A stretch of 64,000 nt of DNA from Vicinamibacteria bacterium (GCA_963579735.1 CAUZIB010000009.1:13491-77490), one strand, 5' to 3'; positions 4,287 through 64,000 are shown, counted from the stretch's first letter. Notes: generated by a model from the sequence alone, not told the origin. Program-made: numbers and translations.

Positions 4287-5564
4287 TCAGCTACCCTCGA
4301 TCGAGACCTGAGCACCCAGCCGACGGAGCCGGGCGACAACATGGGCATATCCGCGCTCGACGGTTTCCAGGGGTCCGACGCGGCTTGTGCCGTGGGCCGC
4401 GAGCGCAGCGGCAATTAGGGCCATCCCGGAACGTAAGTCGCGGGTGTCGAGATGACGTCCCCGAAGTGACTGTGGCCCGTTCACGATCATCCGGTGCGGG
4501 TCGCACAAGAACAAATCGGCGCCCATCCCGCTGAGCTGCTCGAGGGCAAACAAACGCAACTCATACATCCAGTCGTGAATGAGCGTGCGTCCGGTCGCCT
4601 GGGTGGCCAGCACACTCACGAGACTGACCATGTCGCTGGGAAAGCCGGGCCAGGGTGCGGTCGTAATTTGTCGGATACCCGTGAGACGTGACGGACGCAC
4701 CAGCAGGCGTCCATGTTCAAAACCGCAATCGACGCGCATCCGCGTCAAGATCGCCAGTATCGGCTCGAGGTCTTCCTCTTCGACCCCACCAATCGTGATA
4801 TCGCCACTCGTGACCGCGGTCATCACCGCCCAGCTACCGGCTTCGATATAGTCGCCGCGGAGGCGATGGGTCGCCCCACTGAGCCGCGAGTTCCCGTGAA
4901 TTCGAATTGTCGACGTGCCAGCTCCTGAGACCGCGGCGCCCATAGCCTCGAGAAAACGGCACAGCTCGACGACGTGTGGCTCGCATGCCGCGTGTCGCAA
5001 TTCGGTCGGCCCTTCAGCGGCAGCAGCAGCGAGCAAGGCGGTCTCGGTCCCGGTCACGGACGCTTCTTCCAGATAGAACGAGGCCGATTTGAGTCCGTCC
5101 GGCGCGGTGATCTCATGAGCGTCTTCACCGGGGTCGCCGGCGTTCTCGAACGCCCCCATCTGTCGCAAGGCATCAAGGTGAGAGGTCAGCGTGCGACGTC
5201 CCGGAAAGTCACCCCCCGGGGGCGGAAGACGCACTGACCCCGTCCGCGCCAACAATGGGCCCACCAGCAGCACGGAACCGCGTAGACGCCCCACGAGTCG
5301 AGCATCTGGCTCCGTGCCACTCACCTCGGCACATCGAACGGTCACGGTGGTGCTGCCCGCACCCGTGACCTCCGCCCCGAGGCTTTCGAGCAGTTCGATC
5401 ATGACCCCGACGTCTCGAATGCGGGGCACGTTGGTCAACTCACACACTTCATCCGTCAAGAGGCAGGCCGCCAGCATAGGCAGCGCGGCATTCTTGTTGC
5501 CTTCGACGTCAATCCGGCCGCGCAGTACGTGACCGCCCTCGACGAGCAACGTTCGCGACTCGAC
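4287..5564 (-). CDS. murA: UDP-N-acetylglucosamine 1-carboxyvinyltransferase
   Basis: GNKNAALPMLAACLL, the LPPPGGD loop and C-terminal IDRGYxxxxxxLxxLGA-like motifs. The start is uncertain: GTG at 5564 is chosen so the gene begins after the murB stop, but the ORF extends to 5675. Confidence 0.9.
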   Translation of the reverse strand, partial: VESRTLLVEGGHVLRGRIDVEGNKNAALPMLAACLLTDEVCELTNVPRIRDVGVMIELLESLGAEVTGAGSTTVTVRCAEVSGTEPDARLVGRLRGSVLLVGPLLARTGSVRLPPPGGDFPGRRTLTSHLDALRQMGAFENAGDPGEDAHEITAPDGLKSASFYLEEASVTGTETALLAAAAAEGPTELRHAACEPHVVELCRFLEAMGAAVSGAGTSTIRIHGNSRLSGATHRLRGDYIEAGSWAVMTAVTSGDITIGGVEEEDLEPILAILTRMRVDCGFEHGRLLVRPSRLTGIRQITTAPWPGFPSDMVSLVSVLATQATGRTLIHDWMYELRLFALEQLSGMGADLFLCDPHRMIVNGPQSLRGRHLDTRDLRSGMALIAAALAAHGTSRVGPLETVERGYAHVVARLRRLGAQVSIEGS

Positions 5565-37759: not shown

Positions 37760-38011
37760 CAGCGGCCGGCGCGAACTCGGTGAGCACGCCGCGACGACGT
37801 ATACCCGTCGACGACCTGAGTGGCCCGTGGCAAGAGTCCCGCGGGTCCGTGAGCGCGATGCTGGGCCGTCGCAACGCCGGGAGCCCGGACAGAGAGAGAT
37901 CGCATCGCATGAGACGTATCACGCATGACGCCGTGCGATTATCGGGCAAACGCGGTAAACGAGTCAATGCCGCCCGCGCGTAACCCCCTTTCTGCCGTAC
38001 AATTTGCCGCG

Positions 38012-38944
38012 ATGTGCGACGTGATCGAGTGTGTTGTCAACATCTCGGAGGGGCGGCGCGCAGATGTCATCGACGAGTTGGCCGAAGCCATCCAGGCGGT
38101 GAGTGGCCTGTCGCTTGTGGATCGGTCTACTGACGCCTCGCACAACCGGTCGGTGTTCACCGTGATCGGCAACGCCCCGGCGCTGCGGACCGCGGTCGTG
38201 GCCCTCTATCGCGTAGCCATCGACCGTATCGACCTGCGACAACATCAGGGGGTCCATCCGCGTATGGGCGCGGTTGACGTCGTGCCTTTTGTCCCGCTTG
38301 CGAACACGACGATGGAAACATGCGTCGAGTTGGCAACAGATGTCGCCGAAGAGCTCGCCGTGCGCTTTTCGATACCCATCTATTTATACGGCGAAGCGGC
38401 CCGCCGGGCGGAATGTCGCGCGCTCGAAGCCGTCCGAGGCAAGGGGCTCGAAGACCTCGCGGAGCGTATGGCAGGTGACGAGTGGCATCCGGACTTTGGG
38501 CCGCCGGCACCTCACCCCACTGCCGGTGCCTCAGCGGTCGGGGCTCGACCGGTGCTCATCGCGTTCAACGTCAGCTTGGATACGACGGATATCGACATCG
38601 CCCGTCAAGTGGCCCGAGCCATACGCGAGCGAGACGGCGGGCTACGCGCGGTAAAAGCGTTGGGACTCCGGCTAGAGACGCGAGGCCTGGTCCAGGTGTC
38701 CATGAACCTTGTCGACTACCGCACGACACCACTCCACACCGTGTACGAACGGGTCCGCGCCGAAGCCGCGTTGCGCGGCGTCCGCGTGGCGGAGAGCGAG
38801 CTGATTGGTCTGGCGCCCGCCGACGCACTCCTTGCCGCCGCAGGCCACGCACTCAATCTAGCACGCGTTGCGCCGAGCCAGGTGATCGAGGCTCACCTTG
38901 ATCGAGCGTCCGGTCGGGGACCTCGACCCGCCGAGGAGACATGA
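38012..38944 (+). CDS. Glutamate formimidoyltransferase (FtcD N-terminal domain type)
   Basis: IECVVNISEGRR and HPRMGAVDVVPFVP motifs. ATG at 38012. Confidence 0.8.
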   Translation: MCDVIECVVNISEGRRADVIDELAEAIQAVSGLSLVDRSTDASHNRSVFTVIGNAPALRTAVVALYRVAIDRIDLRQHQGVHPRMGAVDVVPFVPLANTTMETCVELATDVAEELAVRFSIPIYLYGEAARRAECRALEAVRGKGLEDLAERMAGDEWHPDFGPPAPHPTAGASAVGARPVLIAFNVSLDTTDIDIARQVARAIRERDGGLRAVKALGLRLETRGLVQVSMNLVDYRTTPLHTVYERVRAEAALRGVRVAESELIGLAPADALLAAAGHALNLARVAPSQVIEAHLDRASGRGPRPAEET

Positions 38945-57409: not shown

Positions 57410-59005
57410 CTACGAGAAGTCCCGGGGCCCAGCCGCTGTAACCTCGGGGTCGGCATCCGCCTCAAACGCTCGAAAGTTCTCTACGAACATCGACGCCAGC
57501 TTGCGCGCCTGCCCGTCGTAGTCCTCGCCGTTCGCCCAGGTCTCGCGCGGTGTCAGCACGTTCGCCGGGACCCCGGCACAGGTGACTGGCACGTCGACGT
57601 TGAAGATCGGGTCGAGACGAAACGCGGTCTTGTCGTCATCCAATGCACCCGAGAGCGCCGCCGTGACCATCGCCCGCGTATGCGCGATCGACATCCGTTG
57701 CCCGACCCCGTGCGCCCCCCCGGTCCATCCCGTGTTGACAAGCCATACCCGACTTTTGTGCTCGGCGATTCGTTGACCGAGCAAACGCGCATAGACCGTC
57801 GGGTGCCACACCATGAATGGCGCGCCAAAGCAGGTGCTAAAGGTGGCCGTCGGGTCGGTCACGCCCTTTTCGGTACCCGCCACCTTTGCGGTGTATCCAG
57901 ACAGAAAGTGATACATCGCTCCCGCCGGACTCAAACGCGAAATCGGAGGAAGTACCCCAAACGCGTCAGCCGTCAGCATCACGATGTTTTTTGGATGTGC
58001 CCCCTGGCCTGACGGCACCCAGTTGTCGATAAACGAGATGGGATAGGCGCCACGCGAGTTTTCCGTCAGCCGGTCGTCATCGAAATCCATCGCTCGCGTA
58101 TCAGGGTCGAGCACCACGTTCTCCAGCACCGTGCCAAAACGTTGCGTCGTCCCATAAATTTGCGGCTCGGCCTCAGGGGACAGCCGGATCATCTTCGCGT
58201 AACATCCACCCTCGAAGTTAAAAATGCCCCGCTCGCTCCAGCCATGCTCGTCGTCCCCCACCAGCTGACGTGCCGGATCGCTGGACAGCGTCGTCTTTCC
58301 CGTTCCAGACAGACCGAAAAACAGCGCAGAATCACCACTGTCCCCGATATTCGCGGAGCAGTGCATCGGCAGAACGTCGCGGAGCGGTAGCAGGTAGTTC
58401 ATCACGCTAAAGATCGACTTCTTGATCTCGCCGGCATAGCTCGTGCCGCCGATGAGGACCAATCGCTTGGCGAAGTCCACGACGATAAAGACGGGCGAGT
58501 TCGTACCGTGCTGGGCAGGGTCAGCTGTCATCGACGGCATATCGATGACCGTGAACTCGGGCTGGTGGCCACCCGCCGGCGTACCGGGGGCGCTCGGTAA
58601 GAACATCGTGCGTGCAAATAGGCTATGCCACGCCTGCTCGGTAATGATCCGCACCGGAAGACGATAGGCGGGGTCGGTGCCGGCAAAGCAATCCTGGACA
58701 AAGAGCTCTTTTCCCGCAAGCGACTGCAACATCGCTCCACGCAGCAGACCGATCTGCTCCGCCTCCATCGGACGATTGACCGAGCCCCACCATACGTTGC
58801 CTTCGCTGGATGGCTCTCGAACCAAAAACTTGTCATTTGGCGAGCGGCCGGTATGCACGCCGGTCAGACACACCAGGGGGCCGCTCTCGGCTACGGTGCC
58901 TTCGTTCCGGCGGACAGCCGCCTCATAGAGCGCAGCCGTGCCCCAGTTCCAATGCACTGGCCCGGGGTCAATGATTCCATGAGTCTCAAGGTGGGACGCA
59001 GACAT
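57410..59005 (-). CDS. pckA: Phosphoenolpyruvate carboxykinase (ATP)
   Basis: GTSYAGEIKKS, FFGLSGTGKTTLS and DDEHGW motifs. Confidence 0.95.
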   Translation of the reverse strand: MSASHLETHGIIDPGPVHWNWGTAALYEAAVRRNEGTVAESGPLVCLTGVHTGRSPNDKFLVREPSSEGNVWWGSVNRPMEAEQIGLLRGAMLQSLAGKELFVQDCFAGTDPAYRLPVRIITEQAWHSLFARTMFLPSAPGTPAGGHQPEFTVIDMPSMTADPAQHGTNSPVFIVVDFAKRLVLIGGTSYAGEIKKSIFSVMNYLLPLRDVLPMHCSANIGDSGDSALFFGLSGTGKTTLSSDPARQLVGDDEHGWSERGIFNFEGGCYAKMIRLSPEAEPQIYGTTQRFGTVLENVVLDPDTRAMDFDDDRLTENSRGAYPISFIDNWVPSGQGAHPKNIVMLTADAFGVLPPISRLSPAGAMYHFLSGYTAKVAGTEKGVTDPTATFSTCFGAPFMVWHPTVYARLLGQRIAEHKSRVWLVNTGWTGGAHGVGQRMSIAHTRAMVTAALSGALDDDKTAFRLDPIFNVDVPVTCAGVPANVLTPRETWANGEDYDGQARKLASMFVENFRAFEADADPEVTAAGPRDFS

Positions 59006-59074: not shown

Positions 59075-60091
59075 ATGCAGACCGTGAGCACCATCTGCAG
59101 ACACAATTCACAGGGCCGGATCGGCCGGCATATTCTCTGGCTCACAGCCACGATGTTCGGCACGGGATCGTGTGCTGGCCTGACGCCAAACATCGATCCG
59201 GGCGCGGCGGCGGAGACAACGGTCCGCGTGGAGCTCCAGACCGGGATGGTCGTGGACCTTTCGCTCGAGCGCTACGTCGCTGGGTCTGTTCTAGCAGAAG
59301 CAGACCTCCGCGGTCTCGACGACGACTCTGCCCTCCGGGTCGCAGAGACACAAGCCATCATCAGTCGGACCTATGCCCTCGCCAACCGGAACCGGCACGA
59401 CCATGAGGGCTTTTCGCTCTGCTCGACGACTCACTGCCAAGTCTATCGATCGCTGTCGACGTATCCACCGCCCGTGGCCGACCTTGGGATCCGGGCGACG
59501 TGGAACACGGCCGGGCAGATCATGACCTACGGGGGACAACCTATCAACGCCGTCTACCACGCTGACTGCGGGGGCAGGACGAGCGATGCGTCGGTCCCGT
59601 GGGGCGGCGTGACCCCGGCGTACTTGCGCGGCGGCGACGATACGCTGTGCCAGCTCGACGCTCCGACGGGTTGGCAGTTCGAGACCACCCGAGCCGAGCT
59701 ATCGCGCGCGCTGAACCTCGACGCGCGCACCGCGGTGGGTCATTCGCTGGCCGGTCTCGCCATCGCGCAACGTGACGAGGCTGGACGGGCGCTCAGCATC
59801 CTGGCCGACGGCGACGCTCCCGTCGAAATCCGCGGCGAGGTGTTCCGCGCCGTACTTGTCGCGACGTTTGGGATTCGCTCGATCAAGAGCACGCGCTTTA
59901 CGATTAACGCCCCACCCAACGAGAACGGTTCCGGCAAACCCAGCGACGTCTTTTCGTTCTCAGGACGCGGATTTGGACACGGCGTCGGACTCTGCCAACG
60001 CGGTGCCGTCGCTCGCGCCAGACGTGGTGACGAGCCCGCCGAGATACTCAGTCACTATTACCCGGGAGCCACGCCGACGCAGTATCATTAG
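59075..60091 (+). CDS. SpoIID/LytB-domain protein
   Basis: ISRTYAL...CSTTHCQVY, YHADCGGRT and GHGVGLCQ motifs. Signal or lipoprotein-like N-terminus. Confidence 0.8.
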   Translation: MQTVSTICRHNSQGRIGRHILWLTATMFGTGSCAGLTPNIDPGAAAETTVRVELQTGMVVDLSLERYVAGSVLAEADLRGLDDDSALRVAETQAIISRTYALANRNRHDHEGFSLCSTTHCQVYRSLSTYPPPVADLGIRATWNTAGQIMTYGGQPINAVYHADCGGRTSDASVPWGGVTPAYLRGGDDTLCQLDAPTGWQFETTRAELSRALNLDARTAVGHSLAGLAIAQRDEAGRALSILADGDAPVEIRGEVFRAVLVATFGIRSIKSTRFTINAPPNENGSGKPSDVFSFSGRGFGHGVGLCQRGAVARARRGDEPAEILSHYYPGATPTQYH

Positions 60092-60148
60092 AGAGCTTGA
60101 AAAGCCTGGACACCCTGGAGACGTTGGACACCCGGTGAAGAGCGACCG

Positions 60149-60175
60149 GTAAACGGATTGGCTGCCCGGGCGTAT
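60149..60175 (+). promoter_or_regulatory. ECF-type promoter (probable autoregulation of the sigma gene)
   Basis: GTAAAC (60149-60154), N16, CGTAT (60171-60175). The same GTAAACG/CGTAT pair is repeated three times at 62811-62910. Confidence 0.55.
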
Positions 60176-60190
60176 TTGCTAGAGACAAAA

Positions 60191-60859
60191 GTGACAGCCC
60201 AACTTCAGCACGGTGCCTCGCCCCGGTCACTCGCGGACTCAGAACTCGCGGGTGCGATCAAGAGCCTGCTCGCGCAAGGAAAGCACCAATGCGCCGGCAA
60301 GCGCTTCGAGGAGCTCGTCGTTCGTCATCAGCATCGAGCTACCCGGATCGCGTTTTACTATCTTCGTGAGGCCGCCGAGGTCGATGAGGTAGTTCAAGAC
60401 GCCTTCCTCAAGGCGTTCACCCATCTTTCATCGTTTCGCGAAGAGCTTCTCTTCGGACTCTGGTTCACAAAGATTCTTGTCAACGCGTGTCTGGACCGTA
60501 TCAAGTCTCGAAATCGTCGGGCCCGGTGGTTACTCCCGTCGCCCAGCGACGAATTCGACCTCATCGAACGTTGTCCATCCAGCGCTCCCTCCCCAGAAAC
60601 GTCTCTTCTGGCCGCGGAGCGCCGCACCCGACTACGCGCCGCGATCGACACGCTTCCGGACCGACAGCGAACAGTGGTCGTGCTCAGCCAGTTTGAAGGA
60701 CACTCGGCCCGTGATATCGGTTCGCTTCTTGGTCTGAACGAAACGACAGTCCGCGTACACCTGTTTCGGGCGATTCGCTCGCTTCGCAAGAAGTTGAGCG
60801 ACGCCCCGTGGCTCCTGCCGCACGAGTCCGCGGCACCCCGTCCCCAGGAGGCGAGCTAG
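60191..60859 (+). CDS. ECF (group 4) RNA polymerase sigma factor
   Basis: Region 2 (VVQDAFLKAF) and region 4 (LPDRQRTVVVLSQFEGHSARDIGSLLGLNETTVRVHLFRA). GTG at 60191 is chosen because it lies downstream of the predicted promoter; the ORF opens with TTG at 60158. Confidence 0.85.
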   Translation: MTAQLQHGASPRSLADSELAGAIKSLLAQGKHQCAGKRFEELVVRHQHRATRIAFYYLREAAEVDEVVQDAFLKAFTHLSSFREELLFGLWFTKILVNACLDRIKSRNRRARWLLPSPSDEFDLIERCPSSAPSPETSLLAAERRTRLRAAIDTLPDRQRTVVVLSQFEGHSARDIGSLLGLNETTVRVHLFRAIRSLRKKLSDAPWLLPHESAAPRPQEAS

Positions 60860-60861
60860 TG

Positions 60862-61488
60862 ATGATGTGGCGACGTCACGCAGACGATGCAGCGCTCCTC
60901 GAAATGGTGGTACCAAACTCCAACGCGACCACTCGGGAAACATCGACCTCAGCGCATATCCGTGCCTGCGAGACGTGTCAAGCACGTGCTGCTCGATGGC
61001 GCCAGATGCTTGATGGCTTGGCTGACGCCGGACCGTCTTCGTTTGACGAGCTCGTGTCGCCCCACCATCTCGACACGCAACGTCGACGGGTGATGGGTCG
61101 AATCGAACGGCTGTATGCGCCACCCGAATCCGCGCACGTGCTGAGATTCCCCGCGGCGACGCGTCCAGCCCTCAGCAAGGTGCGCCTGGTGACGCGATGG
61201 ATGAGCGCGGCTGCCGCGGCCGGTCTTCTGGTGGGGATCACGATCGGGCAGTTTGTTCACCTCCACCCAGAGTGGCCAACCCTCGGTTCCGCGCGTGACG
61301 CGTCGGTCGAGAGTGTGGAGGAGGAGGGACGTCAAGGGACCACGGTGACGGTGGCGCCCGCCCGCACCCCGACCGCATCGTTACTGGATCGGCTCGACCT
61401 GGTCCTGACCACACCCCAGATCCCCGCGTTGACCTCGCTCGACGAGTTCACACCCCGTATTCGTGAAATCGCGATCAACCCCTGGTAA
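60862..61488 (+). CDS. Anti-sigma factor (zinc-finger type, single TM)
   Basis: Start overlaps the sigma stop (TAGTGATGATG). HIRACETCQARAARW motif. TM segment WMSAAAAAGLLVGITIGQFV. Confidence 0.6.
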   Translation: MMWRRHADDAALLEMVVPNSNATTRETSTSAHIRACETCQARAARWRQMLDGLADAGPSSFDELVSPHHLDTQRRRVMGRIERLYAPPESAHVLRFPAATRPALSKVRLVTRWMSAAAAAGLLVGITIGQFVHLHPEWPTLGSARDASVESVEEEGRQGTTVTVAPARTPTASLLDRLDLVLTTPQIPALTSLDEFTPRIREIAINPW

Positions 61489-62728
61489 GACCCTGGACGA
61501 AGCCGTGCCACGCGTTGACGTCGACGCCGGAGTGACAGCCGCGCCGGTCACGATCTTTCGGAAGGGGCTCGACCTCAAAGATGCGGTAGCCGGTTCGCTC
61601 GCGCGGGACTATCACAGCCAGCTCGTTGCAGAAATTCGACGGACGGGTGAGGGCTGGCGGCGCGGTCGACTGCACGTTCATCTCGCAAAAGAATTTGGTT
61701 TCTGCTACGGCGTCGACCGAGCCGTCGATTATGCCTATCAAGCGCGGAAAAGATTCCCTGATCAAAACGTGTATTTGACAGGCGAGATCATCCACAACCC
61801 CCAGGTGAATACACGCCTACGCGAATCCGGAATTCGTTTCCTGAGTGATCCCGGAGAGTCGATCGGGCAGGTCCGACAACACGACGTGGTCATCCTGCCC
61901 GCATTTGGTGTCACGATCGACCAGCTGTCGCAGCTGGAACGCCAAGGATGCACGCTTGTCGACACGACCTGTGGGTCGGTACTCAACGTGTGGAAAAACG
62001 TTCGCCAATATACGAAGGCCGGACTCACGGCGGTCATCCACGGCAAGGTCCGTCATGAGGAGACGCAGGCGACAGCGTCGCAGGCGCTCTCGGGACAGTA
62101 TCTGGTAATTCTCGACCGGGATGAAGCCAACGTTCTGTGTGGCTTCATTCGCGGTCTGGTAAGCGCGAAGGAGCTTCTCAATCGGTTCAAAAACGCCCAC
62201 TCGCCTGGATTTGAACCTGACCGCGACCTCCAACGAATCGGCCTGGCGAACCAGACCACCATGCTCATGTCGGAATCCCTGGAAATCGGAGATATGATCC
62301 GCGGCGCCCTGTCCGATCGATATGGTAGCGACGCTCTGGCTGGCAACTATCGAGCGTTCGAAACCATCTGTAGCGCGACGCAGGACCGGCAGGATGCCGT
62401 ACACGCGCTCCTCGCAAAGCGTATATTCGATCTCGCCGTCGTCATCGGCGGTTACAACAGCAGCAACACTCGCAACCTTGCGCGTATCTGCGCCGATGCT
62501 GTGCCGTCGTTTCACATCGCCGACGCCAACTGCCTGAGATCGTCAGCAGAGATTCTGTATCGTCCCACCACGGCCTCGCCGAGCGCGCCCGCCCAAGGTC
62601 AAGAAATTGCCCACGACTGGTTTCCGGTTCGCGATAAGGTCACCGTCGCGGTGACCGCCGGCGCATCAACGCCTGACAGCATCGTGGGCGATGTCATCGA
62701 CCGCCTCGGCGTCATCGCGCAGGGCTGA
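61463..62728 (+). CDS. ispH: 4-hydroxy-3-methylbut-2-enyl diphosphate reductase (long form)
   Basis: FGFCYGVDRAV, TCGSVLNVW and SSNT motifs. The N-terminal extension resembles the cyanobacterial/plant-type enzyme. Start is GTG at 61463 or 61505. Confidence 0.9.
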   Translation: MKSRSTPGKTLDEAVPRVDVDAGVTAAPVTIFRKGLDLKDAVAGSLARDYHSQLVAEIRRTGEGWRRGRLHVHLAKEFGFCYGVDRAVDYAYQARKRFPDQNVYLTGEIIHNPQVNTRLRESGIRFLSDPGESIGQVRQHDVVILPAFGVTIDQLSQLERQGCTLVDTTCGSVLNVWKNVRQYTKAGLTAVIHGKVRHEETQATASQALSGQYLVILDRDEANVLCGFIRGLVSAKELLNRFKNAHSPGFEPDRDLQRIGLANQTTMLMSESLEIGDMIRGALSDRYGSDALAGNYRAFETICSATQDRQDAVHALLAKRIFDLAVVIGGYNSSNTRNLARICADAVPSFHIADANCLRSSAEILYRPTTASPSAPAQGQEIAHDWFPVRDKVTVAVTAGASTPDSIVGDVIDRLGVIAQG

Positions 62729-62803
62729 TCGGCCGCTCCGGTCTGCTCCCCTTGCCAAGCGGCTGTCCATGAGACAGGATGACGCCTCGATCGAGCGTCG
62801 AAC

Positions 62804-62920
62804 GTCGGATGTAAACGGTGCCAGGCGAGGTGCCGTATGGTCGGATGTAAACGATGCCAGGCGAGGTGCCGTATGGTCGGATGTAAACGATGCCAGGCTA
62901 GGCGCCGTATGTCGGATGAG
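62804..62920 (+). repeat. 36-bp tandem repeat, 3.25 copies, each carrying GTAAAC-N17-CGTAT
   Basis: Units at 62804-62839, 62840-62875 and 62876-62911 differ by 1-2 nt. A partial fourth unit follows. Confidence 0.95.
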
Positions 62921-62935
62921 AGGAGCAAATCTTTG

Positions 62936-63427
62936 GTGAGACTGTGCAGCCCAGCAACGTTAATCACGCGGGTGCTCGTGATCAGTCTGACGCTGGCCGT
63001 ATTCTGGGTCGCGCCGCCACAAGCGGAGGGTGGCCAGCGACATCCACACCGCTGGTGGCAATCTGGCGAGATCAAGGCCGCGCTTCAGATCACAGACAAG
63101 CAGTCGACTGCGATCGAAGACATCTTTGCCTCGACCATTCCGGCATTGCGAGGCCTTGCGAACACGCTGGAACTCGAGGAGCACGAATTGTCCCAGCATA
63201 TCGCCGACATGAACGTCGCCGAATGGGAGTTGACGCTCCAGATCGACAAGGTCGAAGCAGCCCGAAGCGCGTTGAGCAAGAAACGCATTCTGATGCTCTA
63301 TCACATGCGGAAAGAGCTGACCCCACAGCAACTGTCTGAGCTAAGAGTTATCGAAAAACGTCGGCGGGAAGAACGGGACCAACAAGAGCGCGATCAAAAG
63401 AACAACGGCGCGTCCCCTTGCCGCTAG
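62936..63427 (+). CDS. Periplasmic Spy/CpxP-family (LTXXQ) protein
   Basis: GTG at 62936 lies 10 nt after AGGAG. Signal peptide VRLCSPATLITRVLVISLTLAVFWVAPPQAEG. ELTPQQLSEL motif. Helical, with a charged tail. Confidence 0.7.
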   Translation: MRLCSPATLITRVLVISLTLAVFWVAPPQAEGGQRHPHRWWQSGEIKAALQITDKQSTAIEDIFASTIPALRGLANTLELEEHELSQHIADMNVAEWELTLQIDKVEAARSALSKKRILMLYHMRKELTPQQLSELRVIEKRRREERDQQERDQKNNGASPCR

Positions 63428-63571
63428 TCGGCGGTCGCAGAGCAATGCTGACCAGCCTGTGACCGCGGCCCATGGCTCAGCGGCCCTGCTCTGCGCCACA
63501 GATGGCGAAACTTGAACTTCCGTTTACGCAGCGACGCCGGCTGTCCTCCGTCAGGACACCGCCATCAGTCC

Positions 63572-63680
63572 TCCGAGGCGCGAGCCGGAGTAGCCGGTGC
63601 CACGGGCTTCCGAGGCGCGAGCCGGAGTAGCCGCTGCCCCGGCTTCCGAGCCGCGAGCCGGAGCGTTCCGCGGCCCCCGG
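63572..63680. repeat. GC-rich 36/37-nt tandem repeat, about 3 copies
   Basis: Units at 63572-63608 (37 nt), 63609-63644 (36 nt) and a degenerate third at 63645-63680. The unequal unit length argues against coding. Confidence 0.85.
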
Positions 63681-63917
63681 ACCGGTTTGACGGTCGCGAT
63701 CTCGATGACCTCCGAACTGTTTGAACCGTTCCGTCGTCTGCTATTGGTGAGTCGCCGACATGCTTTACCTGCGGGAGCGCCGCGGAGAAGGGTCATCCAA
63801 TGGTCCGGCATGCTCCGGACGAGGCGACGGGCCGACCTAGACGCGATGAGCGAGCGAATTTTGGCATATGCCTATAAGACCAACGCCGCCGACGCGGACG
63901 TGCGAGCCAAAGCCTCG

Positions 63918-63945
63918 GTGACTCTTGTCTGCGACAGTCCACGAG
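63918..63945 (+). repeat. Dispersed conserved intergenic element, copy C (core only)
   Basis: GTGACTCTTGTCTGCGACAGTCCACGAG matches 23/28 with copy A, and the last 15 nt are identical. It ends 16 nt before the ATG at 63962. Confidence 0.7.
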
Positions 63946-63961
63946 TGTGGGTGAGGAATAT

Positions 63962-64000
63962 ATGAAACACCGTCGGGGTCTTCAGTATCATGATGCGGGC
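63962..64000 (+). CDS. Start of an unidentified gene running off the window
   Basis: ATG at 63962 is preceded by GAGGA (63953-63957). Only 13 codons are visible. Confidence 0.25.
   Translation, partial: MKHRRGLQYHDAG

Follow-up and report, generated by a model that had tools for sequence, protein, structure and literature searches.

A copy-number-variable tandem array of putative ECF-type promoters upstream of an LTXXQ-family gene in a lineage of Vicinamibacteria

Why would a bacterium carry the same promoter several times, head to tail, in front of one gene? This question is raised by a 64,000-nucleotide stretch from a Vicinamibacteria bacterium (GCA_963579735.1, CAUZIB010000009.1:13491-77490; hereafter, the window), in which a 36-bp tandem repeat lies directly 5' of a gene for a predicted periplasmic protein of the LTXXQ/Metal_resist family. 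An initial annotation of the window had described the repeat as three units plus a partial fourth, had assigned to each unit a promoter of the extracytoplasmic function (ECF, group 4) sigma factor type, and had proposed that changes in repeat number could tune the gene. Its coordinates were all correct. The elements of the array and the gene that follows it are listed below.

62804-62839, + strand: repeat unit 1 (type A), distal promoter copy; -35 at 62811-62816, -10 at 62834-62838, predicted start near 62845
62840-62875, + strand: repeat unit 2 (type B), middle promoter copy; -35 at 62847-62852, -10 at 62870-62874, predicted start near 62881
62876-62911, + strand: repeat unit 3 (type C), proximal promoter copy, in which the ancestral geometry is kept; -35 at 62883-62888, -10 at 62906-62910, predicted start near 62917
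62912-62918, + strand: TCGGATG, a partial fourth unit; this 7-bp direct repeat borders each of the units
62920-62925, + strand: Shine-Dalgarno sequence GAGGAG of the LTXXQ gene, conserved as GAGAGGAGC in the relatives L004 and L007
62933-63427, + strand: gene for the predicted periplasmic LTXXQ/Metal_resist-family protein, 163-164 residues, with a start codon at TTG 62933 or GTG 62936

Tandem Repeats Finder placed an array of period 36 at 62804-62918, with 3.2 copies, 95% matches and a score of 202, which exceeded that of every other array in the window. The full units share the consensus GTCGGATGTAAACGATGCCAGGCGAGGTGCCGTATG, from which unit 1 differs at one position, unit 2 at none and unit 3 at two (chance expectation, none); both analyses agreed with the triplication and partial fourth unit described before. 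The -35 and -10 elements are both located inside each unit, and only 8 nt separate the last full unit from the Shine-Dalgarno sequence.

Tandem repeats are error-prone in metagenome assemblies, and one Logan contig of the same lineage (L001) breaks exactly inside the array, which would speak for a duplication made by an assembler. However, the same 3-unit array was recovered in the independent assemblies L056 (100% identity over 3.4 kb) and L057, and for this reason the artefact reading was set aside. At least two units were present in 17 contigs from several assemblers and samples, among which are two megabase contigs and also two NCBI metagenome-assembled genomes with an array identical or near-identical to that of the window. 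The array is real sequence, and an assembly origin has a negligible probability.

What do the units contain? GTAAAC-N17-CGTAT occurs once in each of them (62811-62838, 62847-62874 and 62883-62910), and the same pair with a 16-nt spacer is found at 60149-60175, 15 nt 5' of the GTG (60191) of a sigma factor gene. Together these are four matches to GTAAAC-N16/17-CGTAT in the window, compared with 0.00 expected from dinucleotide shuffles, so the motif scan recovered all the pairs that had been reported. The features around the upstream site are the following.

60149-60175, + strand: putative ECF promoter for autoregulation of the sigma operon; -35 GTAAAC at 60149-60154, 16-nt spacer, -10 CGTAT at 60171-60175
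60191-60859, + strand: ECF (group 4) sigma factor, 222 residues (Pfam Sigma70_r2 and r4_2; TIGR02937)
60862-61488, + strand: membrane anti-sigma factor, 208 residues, with an HxxxCxxC motif and one hydrophobic span WMSAAAAAGLLVGITIGQFV

The identity of the sigma factor, also part of the initial annotation, was supported by a score of 110 bits against NCBIfam TIGR02937 (cut-off 42.9) and by the membrane anti-sigma gene next to it.

Promoters of an ECF system can be recognized by a two-block motif common to the autoregulated sigma operon and its targets (PMC3817407). We applied this logic to 42 related Vicinamibacterales loci, with LTXXQ proteins that share 33-80% identity with that of the window, and scanned both strands (730 kb in total) with the strict pattern GTAAAC-N15-18-CGT. 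Of the 54 matches, 32 precede the LTXXQ gene, 19 the sigma gene and 3 a gene for the membrane fusion protein (MFP) of a pump; there were none on the opposite strand or outside these three upstream positions. The sites associated with LTXXQ genes (32 of the 42 loci) were located 33-123 nt upstream of the gene, with a spacer of 17 nt in 31 of 32 cases and no conservation of the spacer sequence; the site at the sigma gene was detected by the strict pattern in 19 of 37 related loci. In all 42 of these more distant loci the motif was single copy. The base that follows CGT, which is A or C by lineage, covaried between sigma and LTXXQ sites (CC 9, AA 5, AC 2, CA 0; these counts are not phylogenetically independent). 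Because the motif is position-specific, restricted to the coding strand, free in its spacer and covarying at a -10 base, we propose with high confidence that the neighboring ECF sigma factor recognizes GTAAACG-N16/17-CGT(A/C)T. The AAC...CGT architecture noted earlier was thus upheld by the two-block motif, by its 16-17-nt spacing and by its conservation upstream of both genes.

Alternatively, the GTAAACG and CGTAT blocks might be binding sites for a transcription factor, such as a response regulator, and the array would then multiply operators. The blocks are short, and the assignment to promoters was made from sequence, which gives this idea some room. However, the 16-17-nt spacing is fixed, the orientation is always the same, the sites lie 33-123 nt before start codons, the AAC/CGT architecture is that of ECF promoters, the motif also precedes the gene of the ECF sigma factor, and sigma and LTXXQ sites covary at one base. 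Moreover, gene calls of the relatives revealed no conserved regulator in the cluster other than the sigma/anti-sigma pair. Thus, an array of operators is very improbable.

A scan of the interval between the LTXXQ gene and ispH, the gene that precedes it, found neither a sigma-70-like promoter nor a terminator-like site. The only sigma-70-like site found in 59900-64000 lies inside a downstream gene for an outer-membrane efflux protein (OEP), and the only Rfam match at E <= 1 was isrD (E = 0.5; 21.7 bits, where the gathering score is 37), which falls within ispH on the antisense strand. A weak sigma-70-like pair that falls below the scan threshold, TTGCCA-N17-CAGGAT, is present at 62752-62780, just 5' of the array, and is partly kept in the sister species L004 (TTGCCA-N18-GAGGAT). 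It could give basal, sigma-independent expression.

At the sigma operon, the -10 sits exactly 15 nt before the GTG, a distance kept in L009 and L012, which implies that the sigma mRNA would have a leader of only ~8 nt and be nearly leaderless. TAGAG was observed between this -10 and the conserved GTG (window 60171-60193; L009 ~5297-5320; L012 ~5359-5380).

A third single-copy ECF-type site, GTAAACG-N17-CGTAG or CGTCA, was observed upstream of the MFP gene of a MacB-type pump, past the 3' end of the window (L055:6943, L051:7009, L056:5303, L058:6912, L004:4798, L014:7834 and L016:7859). As this site precedes its MFP gene, the pump appears to belong to the same ECF regulon. We assign the sigma/anti-sigma/ispH operon, the LTXXQ gene and the pump to a predicted conserved local regulon. 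Elsewhere in the window, a glutamate formiminotransferase gene (FTCD_N, E = 4e-65; ATG at 38012) is preceded at ~30 nt by GGTAAACG-N18-CGTAA, in an intergenic position (37954-37983). The spacing of this pair exceeds that of the conserved sites by one base, and the pair may have arisen by chance or may mark one more member of the regulon.

How far does the number of copies vary? Relatives were recovered by exact-protein look-ups and a profile search, and the lineage was represented by 17 distinct contigs from the 90%-identity cluster of the window protein, with flank identities of ~93-100%; one close contig came from a TARA ocean sample. Two units were found in L002, L003, L050, L052-55 and L058-61, three in the window, L056 and L057, and eight in L051, a 2.94-Mb contig, whereas L006 has at least 2.4 units and L001 ends within the array. 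None of the 17 contigs had a single-unit allele. The nearest sister species have one copy (L004/L005, protein 78% identical; L007, 71% identical), and in L004/L005 the single promoter reads ...ATCGATGTAAACGA-N-CGTATGGTTGATGAGAGGAG. Among these genomes the tandem array is confined to the species-level lineage of the window. The comparison of copy number across related genomes, which the initial annotation had suggested as a check, thus yielded 1, 2, 3 and 8 copies and confirmed that the number changes between close strains. In Logan contigs (k = 31), a 3-unit array would branch where L001 begins; L002 and L003 read through this expected branch point, and so their 2-unit state is probably real. 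The first 22 nt of L003 (L003:1-22) are Illumina adapter sequence, cagacgtgtgctcttccgatct, an assembly contaminant.

The closest comparison indicates how units were exchanged. The alignment of L055 with the window spans 5,001 columns at 99.28% identity, and the ~36 mismatching columns amount to one missing unit, which by this alignment is essentially the sole difference between the two over 5 kb. L055 carries the 2-unit allele A+C. Unit 2 of the window is chimeric, with A at position 15 as in unit 3 and with G24 and T28 as in unit 1, and an unequal crossover in a two-unit A-C array like that of L055 would give exactly such a unit. The last-unit variants T24 and C24 were both found in 2-unit and in 3-unit arrays; therefore, units appear to have been gained or lost recurrently. 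At the level of sequence comparison these data demonstrate a recombinational origin of the variation. In L004, the single promoter is flanked, 35 bp apart, by an imperfect direct repeat (ATCGATG ... GTTGATG), and the 7-bp direct repeat TCGGATG is a likely substrate for slippage or recombination in the array.

In the 8-copy array (L051:3716-4003), six internal units are identical to unit 1 of the window (type A). The two outermost units are those of the 2-unit allele found in its own sub-lineage (L052-54), an allele that lacks type A. This pattern suggests either internal amplification followed by loss or the import of units by recombination between sub-lineages.

The -10 was intact in every unit of every allele and the spacing of -35 and -10 was 17 nt throughout; GTAAAC was kept in all units and alleles but one, in which GGAAAC is still an ECF-like -35. 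A classical simple-sequence phase-variation switch was rejected, as the unit is 36 bp long, the 17-nt spacing is constant and the array lies outside the conserved coding region.

It was also necessary to ask whether the repeat is coding. Its period of 36 is divisible by 3, and ATGs at 62837, 62873 and 62909 (inside CGTATG) are in frame with the LTXXQ open reading frame (ORF), each 6 nt after a Shine-Dalgarno-like GAGGTG. The frame is open through the array from ATG 62837 to 63427, and public gene calls for the LTXXQ gene vary between 163, 164, 172 and 184 residues, so that the units might form 12-codon N-terminal extensions of the pre-protein. However, 27 of 27 aligned homologs share the short N-terminus just before the hydrophobic segment, and on this ground the extension was rejected. 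In addition, the ATG in the -10 is out of frame in the single-copy species L004, the conserved elements are nucleotide blocks and not codons, and an ATG within the -10 of a given copy is upstream of the predicted start site of that copy. We consider a coding repeat most improbable. As a practical warning, the array makes gene callers choose four different start codons for this gene.

The gene product itself was examined by profiles and by structure. The superfamily is described by the Pfam profiles LTXXQ (PF07813) and Metal_resist (PF13801), and the window protein scored below the gathering scores of Metal_resist/LTXXQ, at 26.5 bits (cut-off 29.2) and 18.8 bits (cut-off 24.3), whereas 28 of 28 aligned homologs matched both at E < 0.01 (best, 1.9e-10). 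An AlphaFold2 model built on the alignment of homologs had a mean predicted local distance difference test (pLDDT) score of 80.6, with 87-96 in 10-residue blocks over residues 41-150, and showed an all-alpha hooked-hairpin fold, in which an N-terminal hydrophobic helix is followed by long helices at 54-91, 96-126 and 130-156. The hydrophobic helix (residues 7-22), followed by PQA/EGG, is kept in homologs. Foldseek searches of the PDB returned CnrX first, then NccX, STV and ZraP, with probabilities of 0.97-1.00 at E-values of only ~0.007-0.5; target-normalized TM-scores reached 0.72 for CnrX and 0.81 for ZraP (3lay_A). The best PDB match by sequence profile was Spy (E = 0.05). These profile and model data place the product in the Spy/CpxP/ZraP/CnrX superfamily. 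The earlier description of a signal-peptide-bearing, Spy/CpxP-like LTXXQ protein therefore holds at the superfamily level and for the hydrophobic N-terminal helix, but the closest structures are of CnrX and not of Spy.

Taken together, the explanation that we favor, with moderate confidence, is a copy-variable array of complete ECF core promoters that raises the induced output of the LTXXQ gene. The ECF sigma factor, whose gene lies 2.7 kb upstream, would find in each 36-bp unit a full core promoter (about -38 to -3). A single promoter between short direct repeats (TCGGATG) would have been the ancestral state, from which slippage or unequal recombination produced a tandem array that grows and shrinks between 2 and 8 copies, far faster than point mutation. 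Once freed from the anti-sigma factor, the sigma factor could direct RNA polymerase to any copy, with starts 36 bp apart (~62845, 62881 and 62917). More copies would then give a higher induced LTXXQ output relative to the single-copy sigma and pump promoters, since ECF promoters are usually limited by holoenzyme binding, and the gain per added copy would shrink with rising occupancy. The co-directional OEP gene is probably also raised, because no terminator or ECF motif was found between it and the LTXXQ gene. A change in copy number would thereby set, in a heritable, reversible and graded way, the gain of one arm of a regulon for envelope or metal stress. We infer by analogy that all copies are active and that more copies give more output. 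Synthetic tandem core-tac promoters showed a stepwise climb in transcription up to 5 copies (PMC3293061), and an E. coli model of native tandem promoters has its boundary between occlusion and collision at a start-site distance of 35/36 bp (PMC8830795). As the predicted starts are 36 bp apart, the array would be close to the tightest packing of core promoters that can be occupied together. The leaders from the three predicted starts fold no better than shuffles (z +0.35 to +0.69), and the array alone gave a z of -2.0 against shuffles.

The main alternative is a neutral minisatellite, in which the proximal copy works as the ECF promoter and the upstream copies are recent products of slippage between the flanking direct repeats, with little or no effect on expression and with drifting numbers. 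Close to the array there is a second, unrelated tandem repeat.

63572-63663, + strand: tandem repeat with a 37-bp unit (2.5 copies) between the LTXXQ and OEP genes, with no ECF motif

The two arrays flank the LTXXQ gene and are the only ones in the window with a Tandem Repeats Finder score >100. By motif count, the 37-bp repeat has 2, 3 or 4 copies or none detected among close strains, and it is absent from the sister species L004. Over this repeat, some assemblies call an ORF of 122 residues (63597-63965), probably a spurious one, that matches no family.

Several observations limit the favored explanation or weigh against it. A promoter-less variable-number tandem repeat (VNTR) varies in the same strains only ~650 bp downstream, and the formation of repeats in this lineage therefore need not be driven by function. 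Sites that vary between units spare the -10 and mostly the -35, with 1 of 6 inside the motif, where the motif makes up 12 of 36 positions, but this is not significant (P ~0.35), and decay says little in units of such recent origin. The ancestral spacing to the start codon is retained by the proximal copy alone (25 nt from the -10, compared with 29 nt in L009). The full footprint of RNA polymerase, ~-55 to +20, exceeds 36 bp; this spacing risks interference, neighboring polymerases may exclude each other or collide, and the gain could be small or even negative. Finally, some of the 2-copy counts may be underestimates, because short-read assemblies can collapse repeats, and the 8-copy allele is a single contig, reported from two samples.

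On the other hand, loss to a single copy is expected to be as easy as gain, yet 0 of the 17 lineage contigs are single-copy, which argues mildly against neutral drift. So does the conservation of the elements: the two units of the 2-copy alleles differ at 2-3 sites, yet the -10 is intact in every unit of every allele and GTAAAC is kept, bar the one GGAAAC. Moreover, core promoters of identical sequence are expected to bind the same holoenzyme. We therefore consider the neutral minisatellite somewhat unlikely. A stronger version of the promoter-array explanation treats the array as a true contingency locus of a marine bacterium that is free-living and oligotrophic, a locus at which slippage adds or removes complete ECF promoters and so sets the induced gain heritably and reversibly. 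The gain would be that of a CnrX/Spy-like periplasmic protein and probably of a TolC-like channel, with the second VNTR adding a further layer. This version we regard as tentative, although conceivable.

The remaining genes around the array are given here.

57410-59005, - strand: pckA
59075-60091: gene for a SpoIID-domain protein
61505-62728, + strand: ispH (LytB; Pfam LYTB, E = 1e-70), between the anti-sigma and LTXXQ genes
63962-64000, + strand: start of the gene for the OEP (TolC-like), from gene calls in L001, L055 and L056 and from alignment

The sigma product of 222 residues is the same in the gene calls of L055. As to its ECF subgroup, every NCBIfam equivalog or subfamily model fell below its cut-off and only the ECF superfamily was matched, and the ECF reclassification paper contained no matching gene context. 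In L051 and L058 the sigma gene is uncalled but intact by tblastn, a difference of gene calling only, and a sigma pseudogene in these strains, including the 8-copy strain L051, was thus rejected. The HxxxCxxC of the anti-sigma factor, of the zinc anti-sigma type, is AHIRACETC at residues 30-38; the protein scored 28.5 bits against the NCBIfam anti-sigma model, below the cut-off of 100, and its gene is immediately 3' of the sigma gene in all relatives. ispH was observed between the anti-sigma and LTXXQ genes in every Vicinamibacterales locus with gene calls examined, where it overlaps or abuts the anti-sigma gene, and thus an essential housekeeping gene of isoprenoid synthesis seems to be embedded in the ECF operon. 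In relatives, the OEP gene is followed, outside the window, by the MFP gene and a MacB-type ATP-binding cassette (ABC) transporter gene.

What would follow from a tandem promoter of this kind? If all copies are active, the locus offers a natural system in which the number of identical core promoters can be related to the output of an alternative-sigma regulon, and natural alleles with 1, 2, 3 and 8 copies already exist. Tuning by promoter copy number, known from M. tuberculosis and from synthetic biology, would then also occur in ECF signalling and in environmental bacteria that are uncultivated. If the locus is a contingency locus, it would be the first sigma-factor-specific promoter VNTR and a natural counterpart of synthetic tandem-promoter amplifiers. 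CpxP and CnrX feed back on their signalling partners; if the LTXXQ protein likewise acts back on the anti-sigma factor, the sensitivity of the entire circuit would shift with copy number as well. Comparative genomics in addition defines a predicted promoter motif and core regulon for an uncharacterized ECF system conserved across Vicinamibacterales, and this motif can be used in annotating their genomes. Users of short-read assemblies should be aware that these break, or may collapse, at the array. Overall, we view the locus as a neat and readily testable natural example that introduces no new principle.

How, then, does the locus compare with known systems? The cnrYXH-cnrCBA system of Cupriavidus metallidurans comprises an ECF sigma factor, a membrane anti-sigma factor, a periplasmic protein of the Metal_resist fold and a tripartite efflux pump, with a promoter before both regulator and pump genes. 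Structures 3epv and 2y3b, which were matched by the LTXXQ model, we take to be from this system. The gene set and the presence of a sigma-type promoter before both regulator and pump genes are alike in outline. However, the pump here is of the MacB/ABC type and not of the resistance-nodulation-division (RND) type, the anti-sigma factor has HxxxCxxC, ispH is inserted, and the likeness of the LTXXQ protein to CnrX is at the fold level only (~20% identity, E ~0.007).

Classical phase-variable loci, such as promoter-spacer repeats of Neisseria and Haemophilus, have units of 1-9 bp that alter the spacing of -35 and -10 or the reading frame and act as ON/OFF switches. This locus would resemble them in that slippage changes the expression of envelope or surface genes and creates heritable heterogeneity in the population. 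In contrast, whole promoters are added or removed here, and a graded output with no OFF state is predicted.

Searches for a tandem-repeated ECF promoter returned no second case. Literature searches found nothing relevant; a scan for GTAAAC-N16/17-CGTAT pairs next to each other in the genomes of 185,579 species had 6 matches, all in unrelated coding or generic repeats, and an exact 33-nt repeat search of these genomes gave none. A unit-junction search of JGI metagenome contigs had no match, nor did locus searches seeded with the single LTXXQ protein in genomes and metagenomes, two collections from which the lineage is absent.

Autoregulated ECF regulons are defined by a shared -35 AAC and -10 CGT motif (Staron 2009, Rhodius 2013; PMC3817407). 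As here, the sigma operon and the target genes are preceded by one motif and the gene for the cognate membrane anti-sigma factor is adjacent, but in this lineage a target promoter is amplified in tandem. Synthetic MCPtac clusters in E. coli are likewise made of identical head-to-tail core promoters, and their output rises stepwise to a plateau at 5 copies (PMC3293061); they differ in being engineered, sigma-70 dependent and without natural copy-number dynamics.

The closest natural precedent that we found is in M. tuberculosis, where copy-variable tandem repeats form promoters of dop (57 bp), lpdA (VNTR3690, 58 bp) and cysG (QUB15, 54-56 bp) (PMC12817950). Both there and here, head-to-tail repeats of ~35-60 bp, with a promoter said to be in each, lie directly upstream of a stress-related gene, their number varies among very close strains, and tuning by slippage or recombination has been proposed. 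The earlier statement that an array of a whole promoter is unusual must therefore be qualified by these repeats and by the synthetic arrays (PMC3293061), although no precedent with an ECF promoter was found. The M. tuberculosis promoters are taken as housekeeping-type, serve leaderless genes and belong to a pathogen. The array described here, in contrast, consists of a minimal 36-bp core promoter assigned to an anti-sigma-gated ECF sigma factor, so that only the induced gain should change, and it occurs in a free-living marine acidobacterium with 1-8 copies observed. Thus, the locus appears to join the copy-number-variable tandem promoter repeats, among which its distinctive feature would be that the repeated promoter is that of an anti-sigma-gated ECF sigma factor.

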